Shown here piece after piece: positions 598-32,576 of a stretch of DNA of 64,000 nt; the stretch's first letter is position 1, and each line of letters opens with the position of its first letter. Where the stretch lies: NCBI GenBank assembly GCA_028699085.1, contig JAQVVF010000002.1, forward strand, positions 3,074 to 67,073. Reading direction: 5' to 3'. The translations under genes and the position numbers were made by a program. The stretch comes from Patescibacteria group bacterium (lineage in GTDB: Bacteria > Patescibacteriota > JABMPQ01 > JAQVVF01). Under the pieces are notes generated by a model. It saw only the letters and a program-made list of their open reading frames with translations, was not told the origin of the DNA and ran no database searches.

Positions 598-718
598 AAT
601 GTTAGTGTTTATACCATAATAGCGTCTTGAGTATTTTTGTCAATCAAAGTTATAAACATCTTGACGGATAATATTATTGTGGCTAAATAAAATATTTATT
701 AATTATTTTCAAAATCTC

Positions 719-747
719 TTGACTATTAAAATTAAATCTACTAAACT
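719..747 (+). promoter_or_regulatory. Candidate sigma70 promoter for the tRNA-Arg array (-35 TTGACT 719-724, 17-nt spacer, -10 TAAACT 742-747)
   Basis: Hexamers with 17-nt spacing lie 38 nt upstream of the first tRNA. A second possible pair is TTGACG 661-666 / TAAATA 684-689. Confidence 0.35.
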
Positions 748-784
748 GATATATTAGAAATAAATATTCTTCCCTTCGAAGTTC

Positions 785-861
785 GGACCTGTAGCTCAGC
801 TGGATAGAGCGTCCGTCTCCGGAACGGAAGGTCACCGGTTCGAATCCGGCCAGGTCCACCA
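785..861 (+). tRNA. tRNA-Arg (anticodon CCG)
   Basis: Cloverleaf read by hand: acceptor GGACCTG/CAGGTCC, D-arm GCTCAGCTGGATAGAGC, anticodon stem GTCCG/CGGAA (weak first pair), loop TCTCCGGAA (9 nt, unresolved), T-arm CACCGGTTCGAATCCGGC, encoded CCA. Confidence 0.8.
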
Positions 862-880
862 GCCATTCTTGTTCTTTTTA

Positions 881-953
881 GGCCCCATAGCTCAGTGGAT
901 AGAGCAGCGGTTTCCTAAACCGCGGGTCGCCAGTTCAAGTCTGGCTGGGGTCA
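881..953 (+). tRNA. tRNA-Arg (anticodon CCT)
   Basis: Acceptor GGCCCCA/TGGGGTC (one G-U), anticodon stem GCGGT/ACCGC, loop TTCCTAA, T-arm GCCAGTTCAAGTCTGGC. No encoded CCA. Confidence 0.8.
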
Positions 954-973
954 CAACCACCAGTTTACGGTTA

Positions 974-1049
974 GCGCCTGTAGCTCAGTGGATAGAGCAG
1001 CGGACTTCGAATCCGACTGTCGCAGGTTCAAATCCTGTCAGGCGCGCCA
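974..1049 (+). tRNA. tRNA-Arg (anticodon TCG)
   Basis: Acceptor GCGCCTG/CAGGCGC, D-arm GCTCAGTGGATAGAGC, anticodon loop CTTCGAA, T-arm GCAGGTTCAAATCCTGT, encoded CCA. Confidence 0.8.
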
Positions 1050-1074
1050 AATTCAGATATTCTGTTTGAGTCAA

Positions 1075-1150
1075 GGGCCTGTAGCTCAGTGGATAGAGCA
1101 TCCGCCTTCTAAGCGGAGGGTCGTCGGTTCGAGCCCGATCAGGCCTGCCA
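1075..1150 (+). tRNA. tRNA-Arg (anticodon TCT)
   Basis: Acceptor GGGCCTG/CAGGCCT, anticodon stem TCCGC/GCGGA, loop CTTCTAA, T-arm GTCGGTTCGAGCCCGAT, encoded CCA. Confidence 0.8.
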
Positions 1151-1220
1151 AAGTTTACACTTTTGTAAACAACCAATTTATTTCTTTGCACTTTTAATCA
1201 CAATTATTCTTGTACCTTTA

Positions 1221-1296
1221 GCGCCTGTAGCTCAGTGGATAGAGCACTGGTCTGCGGAACCAGGGGTCGTCGGTTCGAAACCGATCAGGCGCGCCA
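1221..1296 (+). tRNA. tRNA-Arg (apparent anticodon GCG)
   Basis: Acceptor GCGCCTG/CAGGCGC, anticodon stem CTGGT/ACCAG, loop CTGCGGA (positions 34-36 = GCG), T-arm GTCGGTTCGAAACCGAT, encoded CCA. It is near-identical to tRNAs 3 and 4 outside the anticodon arm. Confidence 0.7.
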
Positions 1297-1322
1297 AACA
1301 ACATCTTTGATGTTGTTTTTTC
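1296..1322 (+). terminator. Rho-independent terminator after the tRNA-Arg array
   Basis: Stem CAACATC (1299-1305), loop TTT, stem GATGTTG (1309-1315), then a T6 run. Confidence 0.6.
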
Positions 1323-1395
1323 TTTGACAAAAATTAATAAATTCAGTATTAATTAAAATTATTATAAAAAATTGAAAATTTGCTTAAGAATACTA

Positions 1396-1423
1396 TTGCA
1401 AATATTTTTTAGAAGCCTATAAT
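1396..1423 (+). promoter_or_regulatory. Candidate sigma70 promoter for arcA-argS (-35 TTGCAA 1396-1401, 16-nt spacer, -10 TATAAT 1418-1423)
   Basis: The -10 is a perfect consensus hexamer. It lies about 100 nt upstream of the ATG at 1521, and the leader holds two small hairpins (GGGCAAATGCCC and GCAGGCAAAACCTGC). Confidence 0.45.
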
Positions 1424-1520
1424 GTGCTGAAGCACCTTGACAATTTATTACATTTTTTGAAAAATCGAAAGGGCAAATGCCCTAGCAAAGCAGGCAAAAC
1501 CTGCAAGGAGCAAGAAGAAG

Positions 1521-2774
1521 ATGGAACAAAAAACAAAAGGATTGAAAGTTTATTCTGAAATTGGACGACTCCGTCGAGTCATGATTCATTTCCCTGGTAA
1601 CAACCATGCCTTGATGACTCCTGACAATATCAATCCTGGAAGCGAGAACTATTTGCTCTATGATGATATCGTCAATCCCAAGCGTACCAGACAGGAATTT
1701 CATACCTTTGCCGATATCTTGAGAGCTGTCGCCGAAGTCGTCACCATCGAAGATTTGATGACTGATATTTTCCGCGATCCGCAAATTCGTCTTCATGCAA
1801 TCAATATTGTTGCAAAAATTGAAGGTCTTAACCAAAATGACGCTTCAGAACTCGACTCTCTCGAAGGAGACCAGCTGACGCGTACGTTCATCATCGGCCG
1901 TTACGATGGTCAGATGAATGGCAAGAAATACTTTGAGCCTGATCCCAATTTGATTTTCACTCGCGATATTGCAGCTATTGTTGGCAATCATGCAGTTCTC
2001 TGCTATGCCAGCAAGAAAGCTCGCAATCGTGAGATGGCAATTGTCCGACTTGTTCTGAAATATCATCCGCTCTTCAGCGATCTCAAGTTGATTGACATCA
2101 ACGAAGATACTGATCAAATCGTTACCATTGAAGGCGGAGACATGGCAGTCGTTAGCGACAAAGTAGTTCTGGTTGGATGTTCCGAAAGGACTAACGAAAT
2201 TGCCATTGACCGGCTCGCCAATCGCCTTCTGCAAAATGGTTTCGAAACTGTCGCTCGAGTCAGTCTCGCTGAGGCTCGCTCGTGCATGCACTTGGATACG
2301 ATCTTCACTCGCATTTCTCACAACGAAGCAATTGTTCATGCTCCAATGGTTTTGAAAAATGGTGGCTTGAAAATCGAGTACAGATCGAAGCGTATCAAAG
2401 AATGGACTAGAGATAACAACAACTTGATTAGCTTCCTCTATGCAAACAATATCGAACTTGATCCCATCGTCTGTGGTGGACATAATGAAGTCAATCAGCT
2501 CCGCGAACAGTGGACCGATGGCGCCAACATGTTTGCACTGGCACCCGGAGTAGTCATTGGCTACAACTGCAATGACAATACTCTGCTGGAACTGGGCAAG
2601 CGAGGTTACAAAGTCATCGACGCCGACGAATTCGTCCGCAATTCCGGCTACTACATGTATCGCTACGAGCAGGCTGATTGGAAACTGGCGATTGCTCTGC
2701 CTGGCGCTGAACTCTCTCGCGGCCGCGGCGGTCCTCGCTGTATGACCTGCCCTCTCCTGCGTGATGACGTCTGA
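1521..2774 (+). CDS. arcA: Arginine deiminase (amidinotransferase superfamily)
   Basis: N-terminal VYSEIGRLRRVMIHFPG...LLYDDI, mid FTRD and MHLDTIFT motifs, and C-terminal GGPRCMTCPL catalytic-Cys motif are all characteristic of ADI. The start has an AAGGAG-like RBS. GC content is clearly higher than in neighbouring genes. Confidence 0.8.
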   Translation: MEQKTKGLKVYSEIGRLRRVMIHFPGNNHALMTPDNINPGSENYLLYDDIVNPKRTRQEFHTFADILRAVAEVVTIEDLMTDIFRDPQIRLHAINIVAKIEGLNQNDASELDSLEGDQLTRTFIIGRYDGQMNGKKYFEPDPNLIFTRDIAAIVGNHAVLCYASKKARNREMAIVRLVLKYHPLFSDLKLIDINEDTDQIVTIEGGDMAVVSDKVVLVGCSERTNEIAIDRLANRLLQNGFETVARVSLAEARSCMHLDTIFTRISHNEAIVHAPMVLKNGGLKIEYRSKRIKEWTRDNNNLISFLYANNIELDPIVCGGHNEVNQLREQWTDGANMFALAPGVVIGYNCNDNTLLELGKRGYKVIDADEFVRNSGYYMYRYEQADWKLAIALPGAELSRGRGGPRCMTCPLLRDDV

Positions 2775-2790
2775 TCTAAGGAGTCACCAA

Positions 2791-4656
2791 ATGAAAACTC
2801 AAAATCTTTTGGAATTTGTTTGTTATCAACTTCTTTTCGCTGCACAGACTACTGTCAATCCAGACTTCAGTACAGCCGAATTTTCACCAAGCAAGCTCAA
2901 GAAACCGCCCAAGCCAGAACTTGGCGATTTCGCTTTTCCTTGCTTTCAGTTGAAAGACTTCGGTGATCCCGCAGACATCGCAGTCTACATTCAAGATTTT
3001 CTGCAAACTGCTATTCCAGCCAATGATCTGATCAAGAAGGTTGAAGTCCAAGGACCTTTCGTCAACATTCATCTCAACACCGGAGTTTTGGCCCAATTGG
3101 TCTGCTCACAGATCTTGGAAGAAGGCCCAAACTACGGCACAGGTTCTGTTGGCCACGGCCAGCGCGTCATGATCGAATTCTTGGCTCCAAACAGTAACAA
3201 GCCTTTGCATCTCGGACACGTCCGGAATGCTTTGCTTGGCGCCAGCATCTCTCGAATTTTCCAAGCCATGGGCTTCGAAGTTATTCGCGCCAACTTGATC
3301 AACGATCGAGGTGCCCACATCTGCAAAAGCATCTATGCTTGGCAAACATGGGGCAATGGCGAAACTCCGCAAAGTACTGGCATCAAGGGCGACCACTTCG
3401 TTGGACGCTACTATGCCCTGTATGGAAAGAAGGAAGACGAAGCTTTTGCTGCTCTTCTCACGTCTCAAGGACTTGATCCGCAAGCTCCTTTGGATGACAA
3501 GGAAGAACGCAAAGCTGCTTTCCTGGAACAGTATCCACCAGCCTTGGCTGTCAAAGATATGCTACTGAAATGGGAAGCCAGCGATCCGAAAGTCTTAGCC
3601 CTTTGGCAGATGATGAATGGCTGGACATACGCCGGTTTTGATGCAACCCTCGCCAAACTCGGAATCGTATTCGATCGAATCTACTATGAAAGCACTACCT
3701 ACTTGCTTGGAAGACAACATGTATTGGACGGACTTAGTCGAGGCGTCTTTTACCGCAAAGAAGATGGAGCAGTTTACGCTGACCTAAAAAATGAAGGTCT
3801 TGATGACAAACTGCTTCTCCGATCAGATGGCACTTCAGTTTATATCACTCAAGATATCGGCACTGCGATTTTGAAATCAACAGACTATCAGCCTCTTGCT
3901 CGATCAGTCTATATCGTTGGCTCAGAACAAATTCACCATTTCAAAGTCCTCTTCTTGCTTCTGAAAATGCTTGACATTGAAGAAGTCAAAAATACTCTCC
4001 TCTATCATCTGCCTTATGGCATGGTCAACCTGCCTGAAGGAAAAATGAAGTCACGACTGGGCAAAATCGTTGATGCTGATGACTTGATCAGAAGCATCGT
4101 CGAACTCGCCAGAACTGAAGCTGAAGCTCTCAACGAAGGAAGGGAAGAAAAAATCACTGAAGTCGAACTTGACGAAATCGCTCGGCAAGTCGGACTTGGA
4201 GCGTTGAAATTCTTCTTCCTTGACAGCAAAGCCCTCTCGGAAATGCGCTACGACCCCAAAAAGTCAATCGCATTCAATGGCCGAACTGGACCTTTCGTCC
4301 AATATACGTATGCTAGAATTGCCAGCTTGCTACGGAAAGCTGAAGAAATCAAGGATCCAGCAAAAATTGATTTCTTGACTCTGCACGAAAGCGACGAACA
4401 TTCATTGCTCCTCGCTCTCACAGAGTTTGGAGCAGTAATTCAGGCAGCAGCAGAAAACTACGATCCATCAAAAATTTCTGCTTATCTTTTTGACCTTGCT
4501 AGAATTTTCAATCGATTCTATGCAAGCCATCGAATCTTTTCTGACGATGTGCCAAAGCAAACTCAATTAGCTCGTCTTGCACTTTGCAAATGCACTGGTG
4601 TTGTAATCAAAAAAGGCCTCGATCTCCTAGGAATCGAAGCCCCTGAAAAAATGTAA
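2791..4656 (+). CDS. argS: Arginyl-tRNA synthetase (class I)
   Basis: Start chosen at ATG 2791, which has a AAGGAG RBS at 2778-2783; the ORF track begins at 2761. HIGH-type motif PNSNKPLHLGHVRN and a C-terminal DALR anticodon-binding region (DLARIFNRFY). GC-rich like arcA. Confidence 0.9.
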   Translation: MKTQNLLEFVCYQLLFAAQTTVNPDFSTAEFSPSKLKKPPKPELGDFAFPCFQLKDFGDPADIAVYIQDFLQTAIPANDLIKKVEVQGPFVNIHLNTGVLAQLVCSQILEEGPNYGTGSVGHGQRVMIEFLAPNSNKPLHLGHVRNALLGASISRIFQAMGFEVIRANLINDRGAHICKSIYAWQTWGNGETPQSTGIKGDHFVGRYYALYGKKEDEAFAALLTSQGLDPQAPLDDKEERKAAFLEQYPPALAVKDMLLKWEASDPKVLALWQMMNGWTYAGFDATLAKLGIVFDRIYYESTTYLLGRQHVLDGLSRGVFYRKEDGAVYADLKNEGLDDKLLLRSDGTSVYITQDIGTAILKSTDYQPLARSVYIVGSEQIHHFKVLFLLLKMLDIEEVKNTLLYHLPYGMVNLPEGKMKSRLGKIVDADDLIRSIVELARTEAEALNEGREEKITEVELDEIARQVGLGALKFFFLDSKALSEMRYDPKKSIAFNGRTGPFVQYTYARIASLLRKAEEIKDPAKIDFLTLHESDEHSLLLALTEFGAVIQAAAENYDPSKISAYLFDLARIFNRFYASHRIFSDDVPKQTQLARLALCKCTGVVIKKGLDLLGIEAPEKM

Positions 4657-4679
4657 TTAACTTTGTACTTTGTTTTTAG

Positions 4680-4703
4680 TCCTTCATCTCGAAGGATTTT
4701 TTA
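4680..4703 (+). terminator. Rho-independent terminator after argS
   Basis: Stem TCCTTC (4680-4685), 5-nt loop, stem GAAGGA (4691-4696), then T6. Confidence 0.5.
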
Positions 4704-4712
4704 TTACCTTTT

Positions 4713-5777
4713 TTATTTCTTTTTACTACCAGTCAAAATCAAAACAATTTTCTCGCCTTTTTTAAATTTTATTTTTTTCAATGCTGGAAACACAGTTATT
4801 GCAGTTGGCTCTAAAAAAATTAATTCTTTTTCTTGAATTATTTTATCCCACTTTTTGATTTCATTATCAGTAACTTCGACAACAAAACCTTTTGTCTCTT
4901 TCAATACAAGAATTGCTTTGGGAGAACAATAACTTTCTAAAGCAACAATGCCTTCGGCAATTGAATCATTTATCTTTTTTAATTGATAATATGACTTATT
5001 TTTTTCTAACGCCTTTTTAACTGGATCAGCATTCTTTATTTGTACGCCGATTAGTTGAGGAATCTTTTCAATTTTATTATCCTTTTTCAATATTTCAAAA
5101 CCTCTGAATATACCATGGAACAAACAACCATTTCCAATTGGAATAATTATCTTGTCAGGTAGATTATTCTTAAAACTTTTATATAATTCAAAACTAATTT
5201 CCTGACTGCCTAAATCTCTAAATGAATTTTGTCCAGCAGAAAAATGATATATCTTTTTTTCATTATCAATTACATTTCTGTAAACATCTTCAAAAAATCC
5301 AGGTTTTTTAATTACCTTAGCTCCAAAAGATTTAATTAATTCTAATTTACTTTTTGAAACTTTTTTTGGCACAAAACATTTGCATTTTAATCCAGCTTTT
5401 TTTGCATAATATGCTGCTGATACAGCTGCATTACCAGAAGATATTACTCCAACTTCTTTCACTTTTTGTTCTTTAGCAACATTAATTGCTACAACAGTTT
5501 CTCGATCTTTAAATGATCCTGTTGGATTTAAATTTTCCATTTTTCCAAAAACCTCAATGTTGGGAAAATATTTTTTTAGATTATCAAATTTCTTTAGTGG
5601 CGTGTTGCCTTCTTTCAAACTTAACCATCTTTTTTTCAAGCTCTTTTTCAAAACAGAAATATCTTTAACAACTGGAGTAAAATTATCATAGTATAAATTA
5701 TCCAAACAACACTTTGGATTTTTTTTATCAAAATCAAATTTTTTACCGCACTTTAAACAAACAATTTGCAACTTCAT
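4713..5777 (-). CDS. Threonine synthase-like PLP-dependent enzyme with N-terminal Cys4 zinc ribbon
   Basis: NPTGSFKDRE and ISSGNAAVSAAYYAKKAG motifs (fold-type II PLP enzyme, ThrC hallmark), plus an N-terminal CLKCGKK...CC ribbon. AT-rich codon usage like the bulk genome. Confidence 0.65.
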   Translation of the reverse strand: MKLQIVCLKCGKKFDFDKKNPKCCLDNLYYDNFTPVVKDISVLKKSLKKRWLSLKEGNTPLKKFDNLKKYFPNIEVFGKMENLNPTGSFKDRETVVAINVAKEQKVKEVGVISSGNAAVSAAYYAKKAGLKCKCFVPKKVSKSKLELIKSFGAKVIKKPGFFEDVYRNVIDNEKKIYHFSAGQNSFRDLGSQEISFELYKSFKNNLPDKIIIPIGNGCLFHGIFRGFEILKKDNKIEKIPQLIGVQIKNADPVKKALEKNKSYYQLKKINDSIAEGIVALESYCSPKAILVLKETKGFVVEVTDNEIKKWDKIIQEKELIFLEPTAITVFPALKKIKFKKGEKIVLILTGSKKK

Positions 5778-5816
5778 ATATTAAAAAAAATAATTAATAA
5801 AAAAAAGAATGAAGAA

Positions 5817-6371
5817 TCAATCAACCAGCATCCGGAATTCTCCATTCAGCTCGAAAAGAACAACCTGCAGAGAAAAATCCGGCATTGCTTTTCGCAAAAT
5901 CGCCAAAAGATTTTTCTGCTCTGACTCATAATAATAAGGAACGATATTGATTGCTTCACCTGCAATTTCAGATTTTTTCAAACAGAGTCCAGCATCCAGC
6001 ATTACACAAGTAAACTTGCCACTCGGATATTTCAATTTGATCGTACCATTCAGTTTCCAACTTCCATCTTCTTTCTGCTTGGGACGTCTTCTTGGCGGAA
6101 GCTCCATCAACATCTGAAAAACTCTTTCTGCATCAGGAACCAGAGAAGCTTCATAAGCGATATAATCAGGGTTCGGAGCAAAATCAACAACCAAAGCATC
6201 TCTTTCCGTTTCATCCAGATCTTTTAATTCATGAAAATCATCAATAAACAACATTGTCTTATCATCCAATTGTCTCAATTGCTCCAATATTCTCCAGCCA
6301 ACTACTGACCATAACGTTGGACCCTTTGCTTGATAATAGTGTCCAGCCTCCAAGATCCTTGCTTCTTCCAT
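5817..6371 (-). CDS. Hypothetical protein (GC-rich orphan)
   Basis: Start reassigned to the internal Met (MEEARILE...) at 6369-6371, which is preceded by a GGAGGAGG RBS. The ORF-track extension to 6437 reads through an upstream terminator hairpin. No recognisable motifs. GC-richer than its neighbours. Confidence 0.5.
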   Translation of the reverse strand: MEEARILEAGHYYQAKGPTLWSVVGWRILEQLRQLDDKTMLFIDDFHELKDLDETERDALVVDFAPNPDYIAYEASLVPDAERVFQMLMELPPRRRPKQKEDGSWKLNGTIKLKYPSGKFTCVMLDAGLCLKKSEIAGEAINIVPYYYESEQKNLLAILRKAMPDFSLQVVLFELNGEFRMLVD

Positions 6372-6396
6372 TTTCCTCCTCCTCTCTATCCAAAAG

Positions 6397-6427
6397 CAAA
6401 AAAAAGATCTCGGACTTCCGAGATCTT
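6397..6427 (-). terminator. Strong rho-independent terminator (minus strand)
   Basis: Perfect 10-bp stem AGATCTCGGA/TCCGAGATCT (6405-6426) with a 2-nt loop, followed on the minus strand by T8. Confidence 0.55.
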
Positions 6428-6576
6428 TATGTATCAATTTTTCAAAAAATTAAAGATTCGGGAATCCATTTTCCATTAATTCATTTCTACGACGATTTGT
6501 AATTGCAGTAATATTTTTCATTCACTTTAAAGAATACGCTAAGTCAAAATAAGTGTCAAGTCGATTTTTATAAAAG

Positions 6577-7173
6577 TTATTCTAATTTTCCACCAGTTAT
6601 CTTATCAATATATTCCTTATTTTTCATTAGTATTTTTCCAACTCTAGGATATGCTTTGAATCGATTATAAGATATTTTGAATGGATAAATATCAGCTTTG
6701 TTTTTTTCAACATTAAAAAATGTCCGACAATCTGAATAAGCTAAAATTTTTTCTTCTATTGTTTTTGCTAAAGTATCTTTATTACCTAATCCAATTTTTT
6801 TATTCACTTCTTTTGTCTGACCAACACCGCCCATATGCCGAATACAAACTCTTGCAATTTTTTCCGGCCACTTCATTTTCTTCGCTAGTTCATAACCTCT
6901 TAGTCCATGATAAATTGCTGGCTGTAATTCCTTTGATGCTTTGCTTCCAGAAATCATTCGTCCTAAATCATGAATATAACAACCAATTTTCAAAAAATCC
7001 AAATCAATTTTGTAGCCATTTTTAATTGCTAAATTTGCAATCTTTTTAGAAAAATTCCAAACTACAGTTTCATGATCCCAAGTTTCATCGACTTGCTCTG
7101 ATATACCATTTTCTTTTGCTATTTTTTTCATTAAACTTTTGACTTGTAATAAACTAGGTAATTTTTTCAACAT
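6577..7173 (-). CDS. HD-domain phosphohydrolase
   Basis: H...HD motif (IGCYIHDLGR) and downstream RHMGGVG. The start is ambiguous: the ORF track gives 7221, but Met17 at 7173 avoids overlap with the upstream gene. Confidence 0.6.
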   Translation of the reverse strand: MLKKLPSLLQVKSLMKKIAKENGISEQVDETWDHETVVWNFSKKIANLAIKNGYKIDLDFLKIGCYIHDLGRMISGSKASKELQPAIYHGLRGYELAKKMKWPEKIARVCIRHMGGVGQTKEVNKKIGLGNKDTLAKTIEEKILAYSDCRTFFNVEKNKADIYPFKISYNRFKAYPRVGKILMKNKEYIDKITGGKLE

Positions 7174-8015
7174 ATTTTTGAATCTAAAAAAACAATGAAA
7201 ACTAGATATCCAATTATACATCCAATTGTAATTGGAGGCAATGCCGGAAAAGCTTTTTTTTCTTTCTTAAAATAAAAATAAACATTAATTGCCATAACAC
7301 CAAACAAAGCTCCAATTATTACTAAAACAGAACTTAACGAACTATCTCTCAAAACTGAAACTGCAAAAATAATTGGAAAAGCTAAATCTCCAGTTCCTAA
7401 AAACATAAAATCTTCACCTGGTTTTGCTTTATCTATTCCAGCTAAAAAACCGACTAATTTATTTGGCACAATAATCGATAAATTAGCGCCATTCTCCATC
7501 ATTTTTTTAAACATCAAAACCATATGCTTAGTTTTGAATACAGCAATAAAATCATAGACTGACAAAATAACAAGCATAATAATTATTTGCCCTGGCAAAA
7601 AAGATAATCCGATATAAGAGCTGATCCCAGAAATTGCTAATATAATTGCAATATTATGCGTTAAGACAGAAGGCATAAATCTCCGTAATAAAACTATAAT
7701 CAACGCCAAACCTAATCCTAAATATCCTAATGCAAAAACATCAAAAAATGCTAAACAACCCGAAAACAATAAAACATAAAAAAAACTAGAAAATATAATT
7801 CTACTTTTTGCATACTTAATCACTAATAGAACAACCACAGTACCGACTAAAAAGGCAATCAAAAATTGCCATAATGAATAAGATTGCTTTGCTACTAATT
7901 CTTTTACTTCTTCAACTTGAAAAAGTCGCCAACCCAAATATAAACCTAAAAACTGCGTTATTAAAAATAACAATCCTTCAAAAAACATAAAATTAAAAGA
8001 AAAATTTTTTTCCAA
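7167..8015 (-). CDS. Presenilin/signal-peptide-peptidase-like GxGD intramembrane aspartyl protease (family A22-like)
   Basis: Polytopic membrane protein carrying YD (SVYDFIAV), GxGD (FLGTGDLAFP) and PAL (AFPALPP) motifs in the canonical order and spacing. Confidence 0.5.
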   Translation of the reverse strand: MEKNFSFNFMFFEGLLFLITQFLGLYLGWRLFQVEEVKELVAKQSYSLWQFLIAFLVGTVVVLLVIKYAKSRIIFSSFFYVLLFSGCLAFFDVFALGYLGLGLALIIVLLRRFMPSVLTHNIAIILAISGISSYIGLSFLPGQIIIMLVILSVYDFIAVFKTKHMVLMFKKMMENGANLSIIVPNKLVGFLAGIDKAKPGEDFMFLGTGDLAFPIIFAVSVLRDSSLSSVLVIIGALFGVMAINVYFYFKKEKKAFPALPPITIGCIIGYLVFIVFLDSKIC

Positions 8016-8114
8016 AATTTTAAAATTATTTTATATAACACTATTTTATCATTTTTATAAAAAATAGAAATAAATAACAAAAAATCGTGGTTTTTCCACG
8101 ATTTTTAATTTATC

Positions 8115-8687
8115 TTATTTTTCGCCTACCAACTGCACTGCATCAATTTCTGTCCATTCATTAGGAGCTTTTGTAGTATCAAGTGTAATCTTCACAGTCT
8201 TTACTAAATAATCAGTCTTGTTAAATTTTAATTGCAAATTATTTATTCCTTTTGTTGGATCATCTCCTGTCCAAATCTGATGATATTTACCGTTAGTATC
8301 CTTTAATTCAATCTTTGTTACTGCACCACTTCCATAACTTTCTTTTACTCTTACAGCAGTTGCATGAACAGCAGTAGCAAAATTAACTTCTAATGTCTCG
8401 ATGCCAACATTTTTATCCTTTGGAGCCCAAGCATTTACATCATCAGAATAAGCATTTACATTTGGTTTGCCAATTGCTTGTTTTGCTGACCAGGATTCAT
8501 CATTCTTAGCATTATTATAGGTCGATGAAGCAATCGCACTCACTGCCCATTGTCCGTTCTCATCTGACAAAATCTGACTATCAGGAACATTACTAATTGT
8601 TGCAGTTTGATTTTTGCTACAACCTGCACCAATTCCAACCAATACGATTGTCAAAAAAAATATCACAAGATAAATCCTCTTTTTCAT
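8115..8687 (-). CDS. Secreted lipoprotein, function unknown
   Basis: Signal peptide with lipobox (LVGIGAGC|SKN); the rest looks soluble and beta-rich. Confidence 0.5.
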   Translation of the reverse strand: MKKRIYLVIFFLTIVLVGIGAGCSKNQTATISNVPDSQILSDENGQWAVSAIASSTYNNAKNDESWSAKQAIGKPNVNAYSDDVNAWAPKDKNVGIETLEVNFATAVHATAVRVKESYGSGAVTKIELKDTNGKYHQIWTGDDPTKGINNLQLKFNKTDYLVKTVKITLDTTKAPNEWTEIDAVQLVGEK

Positions 8688-32106: not shown

Positions 32107-32576
32107 AACTCAAGTAAGTCAGTAAGCCAGGTTCTGTACCGCACATAAAATTTTATGTGCGGTAGTGATTATCTCTCTAGACTGTCGATCGCTCGACAGC
32201 TCAAGCCCCAGTTTATATTGGGTTGCATCAGGTAGAGTTTGCCCTATTGTTATGTCACCATAACAATCTGTGGTCTCTTAAACCACTCTTTTCACCCTTA
32301 CCTAGCACATAAATGCACTAGGCGGTATATGTCTCTGTGGTACTTGTCCTAGCTTCAAAACAACCAGTTCTCTTAAGAAGAACCGGATATTTCTTATACT
32401 TGGTTCCATTTCGGAACTACCACTTAATTCGGAAGTCGGAAATCGGAGCTTCAGAAATCGGAACGATCCGACCTCCGACATCCGATATCTGACTTCCGAA
32501 TTGATGCCCGGACTTTCCTCCCCGCACATAACTTTTGTAAATCATGCACAGAGCAATCACTCAACTTACTTGAGTT
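32107..32576 (-). ncRNA. rnpB: RNase P RNA (bacterial type, about 470 nt with an expansion segment)
   Basis: The minus strand contains GGAAAGTCCGGGC (P4 5' strand), AAGGGTGAAA (P10/11 region), ACAGAACCTGGCTTA (P4 3' strand) and a 13-bp P1 between 32564-32576 and 32107-32119. A candidate promoter is minus-strand TTGACA (32604-32609), 17 nt, TATTAT (32581-32586). Confidence 0.8.

Follow-up and report, generated by a model that had tools for sequence, protein, structure and literature searches.

Five tandem tRNA-Arg genes beside an arginine deiminase and an arginyl-tRNA synthetase gene in a Patescibacteria genome

Introduction

Why should the arginine tRNA genes of a bacterium stand in one row, directly in front of genes for an enzyme that consumes arginine and for the enzyme that charges these tRNAs? 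The question is raised by a stretch of 64,000 nucleotides (64 kb, in the following the window) of a Patescibacteria group bacterium (GCA_028699085.1, contig JAQVVF010000002.1, positions 3,074 to 67,073), in which five tRNA-Arg genes at 785-1296 precede the genes for an arginine deiminase (ADI) and an arginyl-tRNA synthetase (ArgRS, gene argS). To our knowledge, tRNA genes in bacteria are seldom grouped by amino acid and hardly ever lie beside their charging enzyme. Patescibacteria, also named candidate phyla radiation (CPR), are believed to rely on a host for their amino acids. A first-pass annotation of the same DNA had called the arrangement an 'arginine module'. Taken as a whole, the locus is probably best explained as an ordinary CPR tRNA-Arg set that heads a conserved arginine gene neighbourhood. 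Two related loci, L003 and the more distant L002, serve for comparison from the beginning and are described further below.

The tRNA-Arg array

ARAGORN finds seven tRNA genes in the 64-kb window. Five of them are specific for arginine and lie on the plus strand within 785-1296; the two others, tRNA-Gly(CCC) and tRNA-Thr(CGT), are located near 10.9 kb. The coordinates and anticodons of the five tandem genes are the same as those in the first-pass annotation:

785-861, plus strand: tRNA-Arg(CCG), reads CGG (ARAGORN; Rfam tRNA, 63.9 bits)
881-954, plus strand: tRNA-Arg(CCT), reads AGG (ARAGORN; Rfam, 66.6 bits); the sole copy without an encoded CCA
974-1049, plus strand: tRNA-Arg(TCG), reads CGA and also CGG (ARAGORN; Rfam, 69.6 bits)
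1075-1150, plus strand: tRNA-Arg(TCT), reads AGA and also AGG (ARAGORN; Rfam, 67.7 bits)
1221-1296, plus strand: tRNA-Arg(GCG), reads CGU and CGC (ARAGORN; Rfam, 67.7 bits)

None of the copies looks like a pseudogene, because all five are full-model matches to Rfam RF00005 (63.9-69.6 bits) far above the gathering score of 29. The possibility, named beforehand, that a tRNA predictor would give other identities or leave most copies as pseudogenes is thus not borne out. The acceptor and anticodon stems are complementary in all five genes, and CCA is encoded by four of them. Each carries A20 in the D-loop (GGATAGAGC), C35, G36 or U36 and an A or G discriminator, which we take to be the identity elements of an E. 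coli-type ArgRS. The spacers inside the array measure 19, 19, 25 and 70 nucleotides. The long TCT-GCG spacer of 70 nucleotides holds a perfect 7-bp hairpin at 1153-1170 (GTTTACA CTTT TGTAAAC), which may be a processing signal; this spacer is kept in L003 and partly in L002.

By standard wobble rules the five anticodons cover all six arginine codons, and the host genes use all six (CGT 60, CGC 9, CGA 71, CGG 18, AGA 370 and AGG 59 in 17,681 codons), as was to be expected if the genes are isoacceptors that jointly read every arginine codon. AGA is dominant, with 370 of the 587 arginine codons in host genes outside the ADI-argS island. A codon reassignment or a missing codon was rejected, since all six codons are both used and covered.

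According to passages of Shulgina and Eddy (2021, PMC8629427), a tRNA-Arg(ACG) is apparently lacking in CPR bacteria, where GCG reads CGU and CGC while UCG and CCG read CGA and CGG. All three members of this published set for CGN codons are present in the window array, and its five genes are the standard CPR arginine set: GCG, UCG and CCG for CGN, UCU and CCU for AGR. The GCG copy, which had been regarded as unusual in place of ACG, is therefore explained as the norm of the lineage and not special to this locus. Neither a tRNA-Arg(ACG) nor a tadA-like deaminase was found within the 64-kb window. An archaeal origin of the GCG tRNA was considered and rejected, as the RNase P RNA is of the bacterial type A, the host belongs to the CPR and GCG is the CPR norm. 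In a Saccharibacteria chromosome (OZ246404.1, locus L027, 7709-7782) a tRNA-Arg(ACG) heads the arginine array, so that the published lack of ACG in CPR bacteria is not universal.

Transcription units and downstream genes

The array is followed by the genes for ADI and ArgRS on the same strand, as had been described before. This is the minority strand, too: nearly every other open reading frame (ORF) of at least 120 amino acids in the window is on the minus strand. The features of the locus around and behind the tRNA genes are the following:

719-747, plus strand: predicted sigma-70-like promoter of the tRNA-Arg operon, TTGACT-17-TAAACT (consensus scan)
1296-1325, plus strand: intrinsic-terminator-like hairpin and T-run closing the tRNA operon, a 10-pair stem at 1296-1318 followed by TTTCTTT (scan)
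1396-1520, plus strand: predicted ADI-argS promoter (TTGCAA-16-TATAAT at 1396-1423, scan) and conserved leader of about 95 nucleotides with the ribosome-binding site AAGGAG
1521-2774, plus strand: stand-alone ADI-family gene (Pfam ADI PF02274, 213 bits; PDB arginine deiminases 4bof and 1rxx)
2791-4656, plus strand: arginyl-tRNA synthetase gene, 621 amino acids from the ATG at 2791 (TIGR00456, 391 bits versus a cut-off of 262)
4678-4705, plus strand: terminator-like hairpin ending the ADI-argS unit (stem 4678-4698; scan), at the right edge of a GC-rich block

The best reading of these elements is two predicted transcription units, a five-tRNA operon and a separate ADI-argS operon. Co-oriented genes with short spacers and canonical, intact members are typical of a bacterial tRNA operon, and the array is flanked by a single predicted promoter (719-747) and a putative terminator (1296-1318), both conserved in the relatives. 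The promoter block TCTCTTGAC...TAAACT...ATATTAGAAATAAATAT is found in L003 and in L002; the terminator stem, which begins at the last base of the GCG gene, is also conserved in both. The five tRNAs would thus form one short operon that starts at a promoter and ends at a terminator of its own. The earlier idea of 'one operon' holds for the five tRNAs, but not for ADI and argS, which are split off by the hairpin at 1296-1318 and the promoter at 1396-1423. ADI and argS, separated by a gap of 16 nucleotides, are probably co-transcribed. Their leader is conserved in comparison to L002 from the -35 element to about +45 and again in the ribosome-binding region, despite a different upstream gene there. 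Both promoter blocks are retained in L002 although its ArgRS is only 83% identical. A T-box or another known leader was not found 5' of ADI-argS by Rfam at the gathering threshold. Near the -35 element of ADI-argS a weak ARG-box-like match can be seen by eye; such matches are common in AT-rich DNA, and no claim is made for it.

The ADI aligns to PDB 4bof and retains the motifs FTRD, IEGGD, MHLDT and GGPRCM. With its ADI fold and its catalytic Cys/His/Asp-Glu motifs it appears to be catalytically intact. It stays below the NCBIfam equivalog cut-offs for arcA (268-278 bits versus 414/489) and is a divergent member of the ADI, GME superfamily. Matches to arcB (OTCase), arcC (carbamate kinase) or the arcD/ArcD-E family were not found among the submitted non-nested ORFs of at least 120 amino acids in the window, nor were argG and argH found within its 64 kb. 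The combination of arcA, arcB, arcC and an arginine/ornithine antiporter that defines an ADI pathway (arc) operon is therefore not present in the window. This gene, described before as an arginine-catabolising one, stands alone.

The ArgRS possesses an N-terminal, a catalytic and a DALR domain (three Pfam domains), the motifs HLGH and KMKSR, and the residues E129, N134, Y351, D355 and Q380, which presumably form the arginine pocket. By its domains, its HIGH/KMSKS-like motifs and these residues it is a class Ia arginyl-tRNA synthetase. An identical product with the start ATG at 2791 is on record as 'arginine--tRNA ligase [Patescibacteria group bacterium]'. Because the identity elements of the tRNAs and the enzyme are intact, the array would be the ordinary, probably the only, tRNA-Arg supply of the cell, and the linked ArgRS would charge it in the normal way.

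Recurrence in related and distant genomes

Loci of the same kind were compared with the window:

L003 (Logan SRR27710321): ABC transporter, then the five tRNAs of the window in unchanged order, followed by ADI (99.5% amino acid identity to the window) and ArgRS (86.8%)
L002 (GCA_964574655.1, 654-kb contig labelled Candidatus Saccharibacteria): the same array, DDAH-like gene, class III aminotransferase, ADI (76%) and ArgRS (83%)
L027 (Saccharibacteria chromosome OZ246404.1, about 46% GC throughout): array ACG-TCG-TCT-CCG of at least four genes, cut by the locus end, 1.3 kb from ADI-ArgRS
L019 (all on one strand): tRNA-Arg TCT-TCG-GCG, argH, argG, ADI-family gene and an ArgRS of another type (30% identity)
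L126/L127 (ADI product named Candidatus Magasanikbacteria): five-gene array GCG, CCG, TCG, CCT, TCT with all five anticodons and its own promoter and terminator
L125: ArgRS-ADI-ArgRS-DDAH-like, with no tRNA in view
L218: ArgRS, argH, argG, ADI, with no array

The synteny asked for in the first-pass annotation is thus found in L003 and L002, both of which have the same array in the same order upstream of ADI-ArgRS. The DDAH-like gene of L002 (Pfam, 333 bits) and the class III aminotransferase lie between array and ADI at 6245-8610 of that locus, in a GC-enriched segment with an intermediate GC content at third codon positions (GC3) of 0.33-0.34. Both genes are missing from the window (1341-1393) and from L003, which indicates an insertion or deletion at the array-ADI junction.

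In the more distant lineages gene order is shuffled. ADI and ArgRS of L027 overlap and are 32% and 43% identical to those of the window. The array of L126/L127 lies 178 nucleotides upstream of an ArgRS of 598 amino acids (41% identity) adjoined by ADI, argG and argH; a second ArgRS of 561 amino acids is found a few kb off beside ValRS and TyrRS. Altogether, an array of three to five tRNA genes, an ADI-family gene and an ArgRS stand within a few kb of each other in four deeply separated lineages. At least three tRNA-Arg isoacceptor genes within about 5 kb of both an ArgRS and an ADI-family gene are present in the window, L002, L003, L126/L127, L027 and L019. The idea of an arginine module therefore gains from two related genomes and three other distant lineages.

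These loci were found in different ways. L126/L127 were reached by following ADI homologues, L027 and L019 through arrays. The array scan of GTDB species genomes looked for three consecutive non-ACG tRNA-Arg anticodon arms and matched at least 119 stretches; it is not exhaustive, as its anchor sequences and spacing would miss the Magasanikbacteria array. At least 16 GTDB genome loci have three or more tRNA-Arg genes called by ARAGORN, and among the matches listed only the relative of the window has all five anticodons. For a control, metagenomes were scanned with an alignment built from the linked ArgRS, which gave 80 loci, mostly of the Bacteroidales type, with 42-50% identity and usually 10-kb flanks. 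A tRNA-Arg array occurred in none of these 80 loci; a single tRNA-Arg(CCT) was seen in two and an adjacent ADI in one. Arrays beside the ArgRS type of the window are thus present in three of five CPR lineages versus 0/80 controls (Fisher p = 1e-4; p = 1.7e-3 without the window's own clade).

These numbers bear on the simplest alternative, that array and synthetase are chance neighbours: tRNA genes often cluster, and an array can land beside argS in a genome of about 1 Mb. Such an origin would agree with the separate predicted transcription units of the tRNAs and ADI-argS and with arrays of at least three tRNA-Arg genes without an ArgRS in Caldisericia, Dojkabacteria and others. It is nevertheless very unlikely, considering that the association recurs in four deeply diverged lineages in different order and orientation and is absent from the 80 control ArgRS loci (p about 1e-4 to 2e-3). 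Moreover, an ArgRS lies within an 8-kb window in 2 of the 15 array-ascertained loci listed, where about 0.03-0.24 would be expected (assuming one or two ArgRS genes per 1-4 Mb genome). The array-ArgRS-ADI association is well supported, though not yet quantified.

Remodelling of the array

The near-identity of the third to fifth copies outside the anticodon arm, stated in the first-pass annotation, has to be restricted: it is seen for GCG/TCT (91%) and GCG/TCG (86%), while TCG and TCT share only 79%. In the GCG tRNA of the window, which looks like a mosaic, the acceptor stem is that of TCG and the T-arm that of TCT. The following identities were found between genes of the window and its relatives:

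Window TCT versus L002 TCT: 97%
Window CCG versus L002 CCG: 87%
Window CCT versus L002 CCT: 83%
Window TCG versus L002 TCG (same position): 74%
Window GCG versus L002 GCG: 74%
L002 GCG versus L002 CCG: 88%
Magasanikbacteria TCG versus TCT (L126): 97%, two bases different, one of them in the anticodon
Magasanikbacteria CCT versus GCG: 87%

Between the window and L003, tRNA-Arg(CCG) and tRNA-Arg(CCT) are each 100% identical. Neighbours in an array are often more alike than genes sharing the same anticodon across related genomes, and because of this the array members are regarded as repeatedly remade by duplication or gene conversion and anticodon change. The earlier proposal of duplication followed by anticodon change is thereby strengthened, more clearly by the relatives (Magasanikbacteria TCG/TCT 97%, L002 GCG/CCG 88%) than by the window. 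A switch of this kind would be harmless, since recognition by the ArgRS through A20, C35 and G/U36 is unaffected. In the preferred explanation the array renews itself by duplication or gene conversion among neighbouring genes, with the anticodon changed afterwards.

Foreign composition and mosaic argS

The GC content amounts to 0.44-0.52 over 750-4650 and to 0.27-0.33 on either side, with a drop from about 0.44 to 0.27 at the right edge of the ADI-argS block (step at 4650-4700). tRNA genes are GC-rich by nature; protein genes are not expected to be so. ADI has a GC content of 0.467 and a GC3 of 0.492, argS a GC3 of 0.441, and the other genes a GC3 of 0.15-0.28, in round terms about 0.2. Furthermore, ADI and argS prefer CGN codons for arginine and the host genes AGA. 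ADI-argS of L002 is likewise compositionally foreign; as the other plus-strand genes there keep the host composition, the strand does not explain the shift.

A sharp step at 4650-4700 and a GC difference of 15 points would also result from an assembly or binning chimera, with the GC-rich ADI-argS block attached by error to an AT-rich contig. This is hardly conceivable, because the same junctions (ABC transporter - tRNA array - ADI - ArgRS - PALP gene) exist in L001, L003, L004, L005 and L002, which are separately assembled contigs from other sequencing runs and another metagenome-assembled genome (MAG).

The window and L003 share 99-100% nucleotide identity over 1-2770. In the first 300 nucleotides of argS (2791-3090), the window is only 64-74% identical to L003 and to L002, whereas L003 and L002 are 84-92% identical to each other. 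Because the window diverges here while the two others stay alike, its N-terminal tRNA-binding domain of the ArgRS looks like an imported divergent allele. The argS gene is a recombination mosaic, and recombination is active exactly at this site. A GC-richer donor may have supplied ADI-argS in the clade of the window, either by import or by overwriting through recombination.

No integrase, recombinase or mobile-element gene was found at the edges of the block, which holds only ADI and ArgRS, and an att-like direct repeat of a tRNA 3' end was not found near 4650-4800. An integrative island at a tRNA was rejected on these grounds in spite of the atypical composition. A block of tRNA and synthetase genes from a phage or giant virus was also rejected: scans of IMG/VR yielded no such array, also not adjoining the five ArgRS relatives on viral contigs, and the two pattern matches there (L210, L211) are partial tRNA-Arg(CCT) repeats of the Clostridia type.

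Second ArgRS genes and the weighing of explanations

Two unrelated CPR-like contigs, L125 (8069-14161) and L126 (5372-14595), contain two apparently intact ArgRS genes that are about 30% identical to each other and flank an ADI-family gene. In a motif comparison both ArgRS types keep the catalytic and the arginine-pocket residues. Outside the clade of the window, the closest ArgRS (44-48% identity) come from Gemmatimonadota, KSB1 and Bacteroidota, where they are housekeeping enzymes with ordinary gene surroundings.

These two-ArgRS relatives keep alive the main rival, an accessory, horizontally exchanged arginine-decoding cassette of array, ArgRS and ADI beside a native ArgRS and perhaps native tRNA-Arg genes. 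It could serve as a second charging system under arginine starvation or in the presence of arginine analogues or an ArgRS inhibitor. The strongly foreign composition of ADI-argS, the mosaic argS and the likeness of the ArgRS to the housekeeping type of Gemmatimonadota, KSB1 and Bacteroidota (44-48%) all fit such an exchange, as does the presence of this type in L125 and L126 beside the second, about 30% identical ArgRS, whose copy in L126 stands with ValRS and TyrRS at background GC. On the other hand, the edges show no integrase, no att-like tRNA 3'-end repeat and no mobile-element genes, and the flanks are syntenic in three genomes. The promoter and spacers of the array are AT-rich like the host and conserved. 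In addition, L126 and L125 show a weak compositional anomaly, neither such an array nor a linked ArgRS was found in the IMG/VR viral contigs, and in L019 the layout is repeated with the other ArgRS type, which speaks for a functional link rather than for a single cassette on the move. One gene per anticodon is the normal state of CPR genomes, which also weighs against an additional set. On balance this explanation is unlikely. A stronger version, in which the array supplies the RNA half of an exchangeable, self-contained cassette that circulates among Patescibacteria, in some genomes beside a native ArgRS, is decidedly doubtful. If it were true, the cell would own two parallel arginine-charging systems, one of which could be kept for arginine limitation imposed by the host, for withstanding arginine analogues or inhibitors of ArgRS, or for using Arg-tRNA outside the ribosome.

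A use beyond free arginine for translation is a further rival. The ADI-family enzyme and the linked ArgRS would then act, for example, in a non-ribosomal transfer reaction fed by Arg-tRNA, in the deimination of tRNA-bound or modified arginine, or in detoxifying analogues such as canavanine. Two ArgRS genes around an ADI-family gene (L125, L126), an ADI below the arcA equivalog cut-offs without arcB, arcC and arcD partners, and DDAH-like enzymes, an Asp/Glu racemase and an M15 peptidase in the neighbourhoods would be in line with it. Yet the arginine-pocket and catalytic motifs are kept in both ArgRS types, no catalytic motif of the solved arginine deiminases is missing from the ADI, and the tRNAs are canonical elongators that match exactly the sense codons in use. 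Nothing observed requires unusual chemistry, and both the general idea and the examples named are highly improbable.

Several points weigh against the preferred explanation of an ordinary tRNA-Arg set in a conserved arginine neighbourhood. Its promoters and terminators are consensus matches only, and the analysis identified no regulator or shared operator that would give direct support to co-regulation. Since L125 and L126 carry, next to the module, another ArgRS that differs and seems intact, the ArgRS of the window could be an extra copy. The census of tRNA-Arg and ArgRS genes covers 64 kb of the genome, and statements such as 'complete and only set' or 'only ArgRS' go beyond that. For the ArgRS, the neighbour-joining tree is rough and carries no support values; it is star-like, places the CPR sequences basal among FCB-type ArgRS and resolves neither a sister group nor a donor. 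L218 lacks an array, and two Dojkabacteria arrays have no ArgRS or ADI on the visible side, so that the array-ArgRS-ADI linkage is frequent, not obligatory. Finally, few lineages were sampled, and the ways in which the loci were found introduce a partial bias.

In the preferred explanation, tRNAs, charging enzyme and a free-arginine-consuming enzyme side by side would be a conserved layout of Patescibacteria. The argG/argH, DDAH-like and aminotransferase genes of the relatives point to a general neighbourhood for arginine salvage and catabolism. Its benefit may be a coordinated expression or dosage of arginine use in arginine scavengers, or the inheritance or transfer of the set as a unit.

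Host and further observations

The host is a member of the Patescibacteria, as concluded from the product name of the ArgRS, the presence of DUF4012, MurJ and LepA, and the related contig labelled Candidatus Saccharibacteria. Besides these three genes, the window carries glycolysis genes, acetate kinase, NiFe hydrogenase, many glycosyltransferases, ribosomal proteins, SecY and a type A bacterial RNase P RNA, a content which fits a fermentative CPR bacterium. Two features of the window and three of other contigs are mentioned in addition:

32107-32572, minus strand: match to the type A RNase P RNA, spanning 466 nucleotides for a model of 367 positions and thus holding sizeable insertions
5817-6437, minus strand: ORF of 206 amino acids without a Pfam or NCBIfam match, arginine-rich (6.8%) and GC-enriched (GC 0.40, GC3 0.36) within an AT-rich stretch; the block 5777-6576 around it is about 100% identical to L003 with flanks of 85-94%, and the counterpart in L002 has 182 amino acids and a GC3 of 0.41
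L217 (Logan SRR14699982), 660-5852: DDAH-like gene, argG, argH and ADI in a row on a phage-like contig, marked as such by a long series of short ORFs on the same strand, an intein/HNH protein and DUF1064; no tRNA genes were found on it
L030, 67-982: tandem tRNA-Arg genes GCG, CCG, GCG, GCG, CCG, GCG (four GCG, two CCG) on a 57%-GC MAG contig labelled Proteobacteria
L007, 2610-2875: one intact tRNA-Arg(CCT) after two tandem partial copies of its 5' half of about 95 nucleotides

The last structure made up most matches of the three-anchor pattern. It occurs in at least 86 other genome loci (L006-L124), the sampled ones being Clostridia, and also on the viral contigs L210 and L211. Because the same structure is present on these two viral contigs, the tRNA-Arg(CCT) partial repeats are suggestive of prophage attachment-site scars.

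Should the layout hold throughout Patescibacteria, it would be a plain example of a part of the translation machinery that is arranged by a single amino acid, and a natural system for watching anticodon change in a tandem array (in one relative TCG and TCT are two bases apart). It further raises the question why in some of these very small genomes an arginine deiminase stands between two ArgRS genes. Both the recurrence among lineages and the dynamics of the array are real and easily testable.

Comparison with known systems

All parts of the locus are ordinary, and tRNA operons, clusters for the same amino acid, the CPR anticodon set and the linkage of argS and arcA are known. New are the recurrence of array, ADI and ArgRS in four lineages, the remodelling of the array and the foreign ADI-argS with its mosaic argS. 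In the literature searched, neither tRNA-Arg arrays linked to argS, nor a complete isoacceptor operon linked to its own synthetase, nor paired ArgRS genes around an ADI are described for CPR bacteria.

With ordinary tRNA operons and same-amino-acid clusters the array shares close, co-oriented genes, members related by duplication and, as predicted, one promoter and terminator. Escherichia coli has a run of tRNA-Arg(ACG) genes, and clusters of the type Pro-Arg(TCT)-Arg(CCT)-Arg(TCG)-Lys were found in Caldisericia by the array scan. In contrast, the operon of the window consists of one copy of every anticodon of one six-codon amino acid and nothing else, and such an array adjoins the cognate synthetase in several lineages. 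The passages of Shulgina and Eddy (2021, PMC8629427) mentioned above describe the repertoire and contain nothing on gene arrangement or a linkage to argS and ADI.

The arc cluster of Lactococcus lactis is organised as argR | argS arcA arcB arcD1 arcC1 arcC2 arcT arcD2 (PMC5300872, PMC6586332). As in the window, the ArgRS and ADI genes are immediate neighbours in a locus of arginine use. However, the window belongs to another phylum, has ADI upstream of argS and lacks arcB, arcC, arcD and argR, and for the Lactococcus cluster no tRNA genes are mentioned (PMC5300872, PMC6586332). Closer to the host is the ADI system of Saccharibacteria, an ATP-yielding operon of the four genes arcA-arcB-arcD-arcC, for which horizontal acquisition is proposed by Tian et al. 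(2022, PMC8764695); in a term search of this paper, neither argS nor tRNA turned up. Both systems place an ADI gene in a Saccharibacteria-like genome, but the ADI of the window stands alone and is paired with an ArgRS, and the relatives add argG/argH or DDAH-like genes.

A dense run of tRNA genes with a possible horizontal transfer also recalls the tRNA array units, defined in a passage of Tran et al. (2016, PMC4758250) as 20 or more tRNA genes with a density of at least two per kb; with its five genes for one amino acid and no redundancy with others, the window array falls outside this definition. Finally, tRNA remolding by anticodon shift has been described for mitochondrial tRNAs (PMC4783518). 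The likeness lies in gene duplication, anticodon change and loss of the older copy, by which a tRNA comes to resemble its neighbour more than its counterpart in a related genome. Unlike the mitochondrial cases, switches of the window type are restricted to isoacceptors, leave the ArgRS identity unaffected and take place in a tandem array, where gene conversion is possible.

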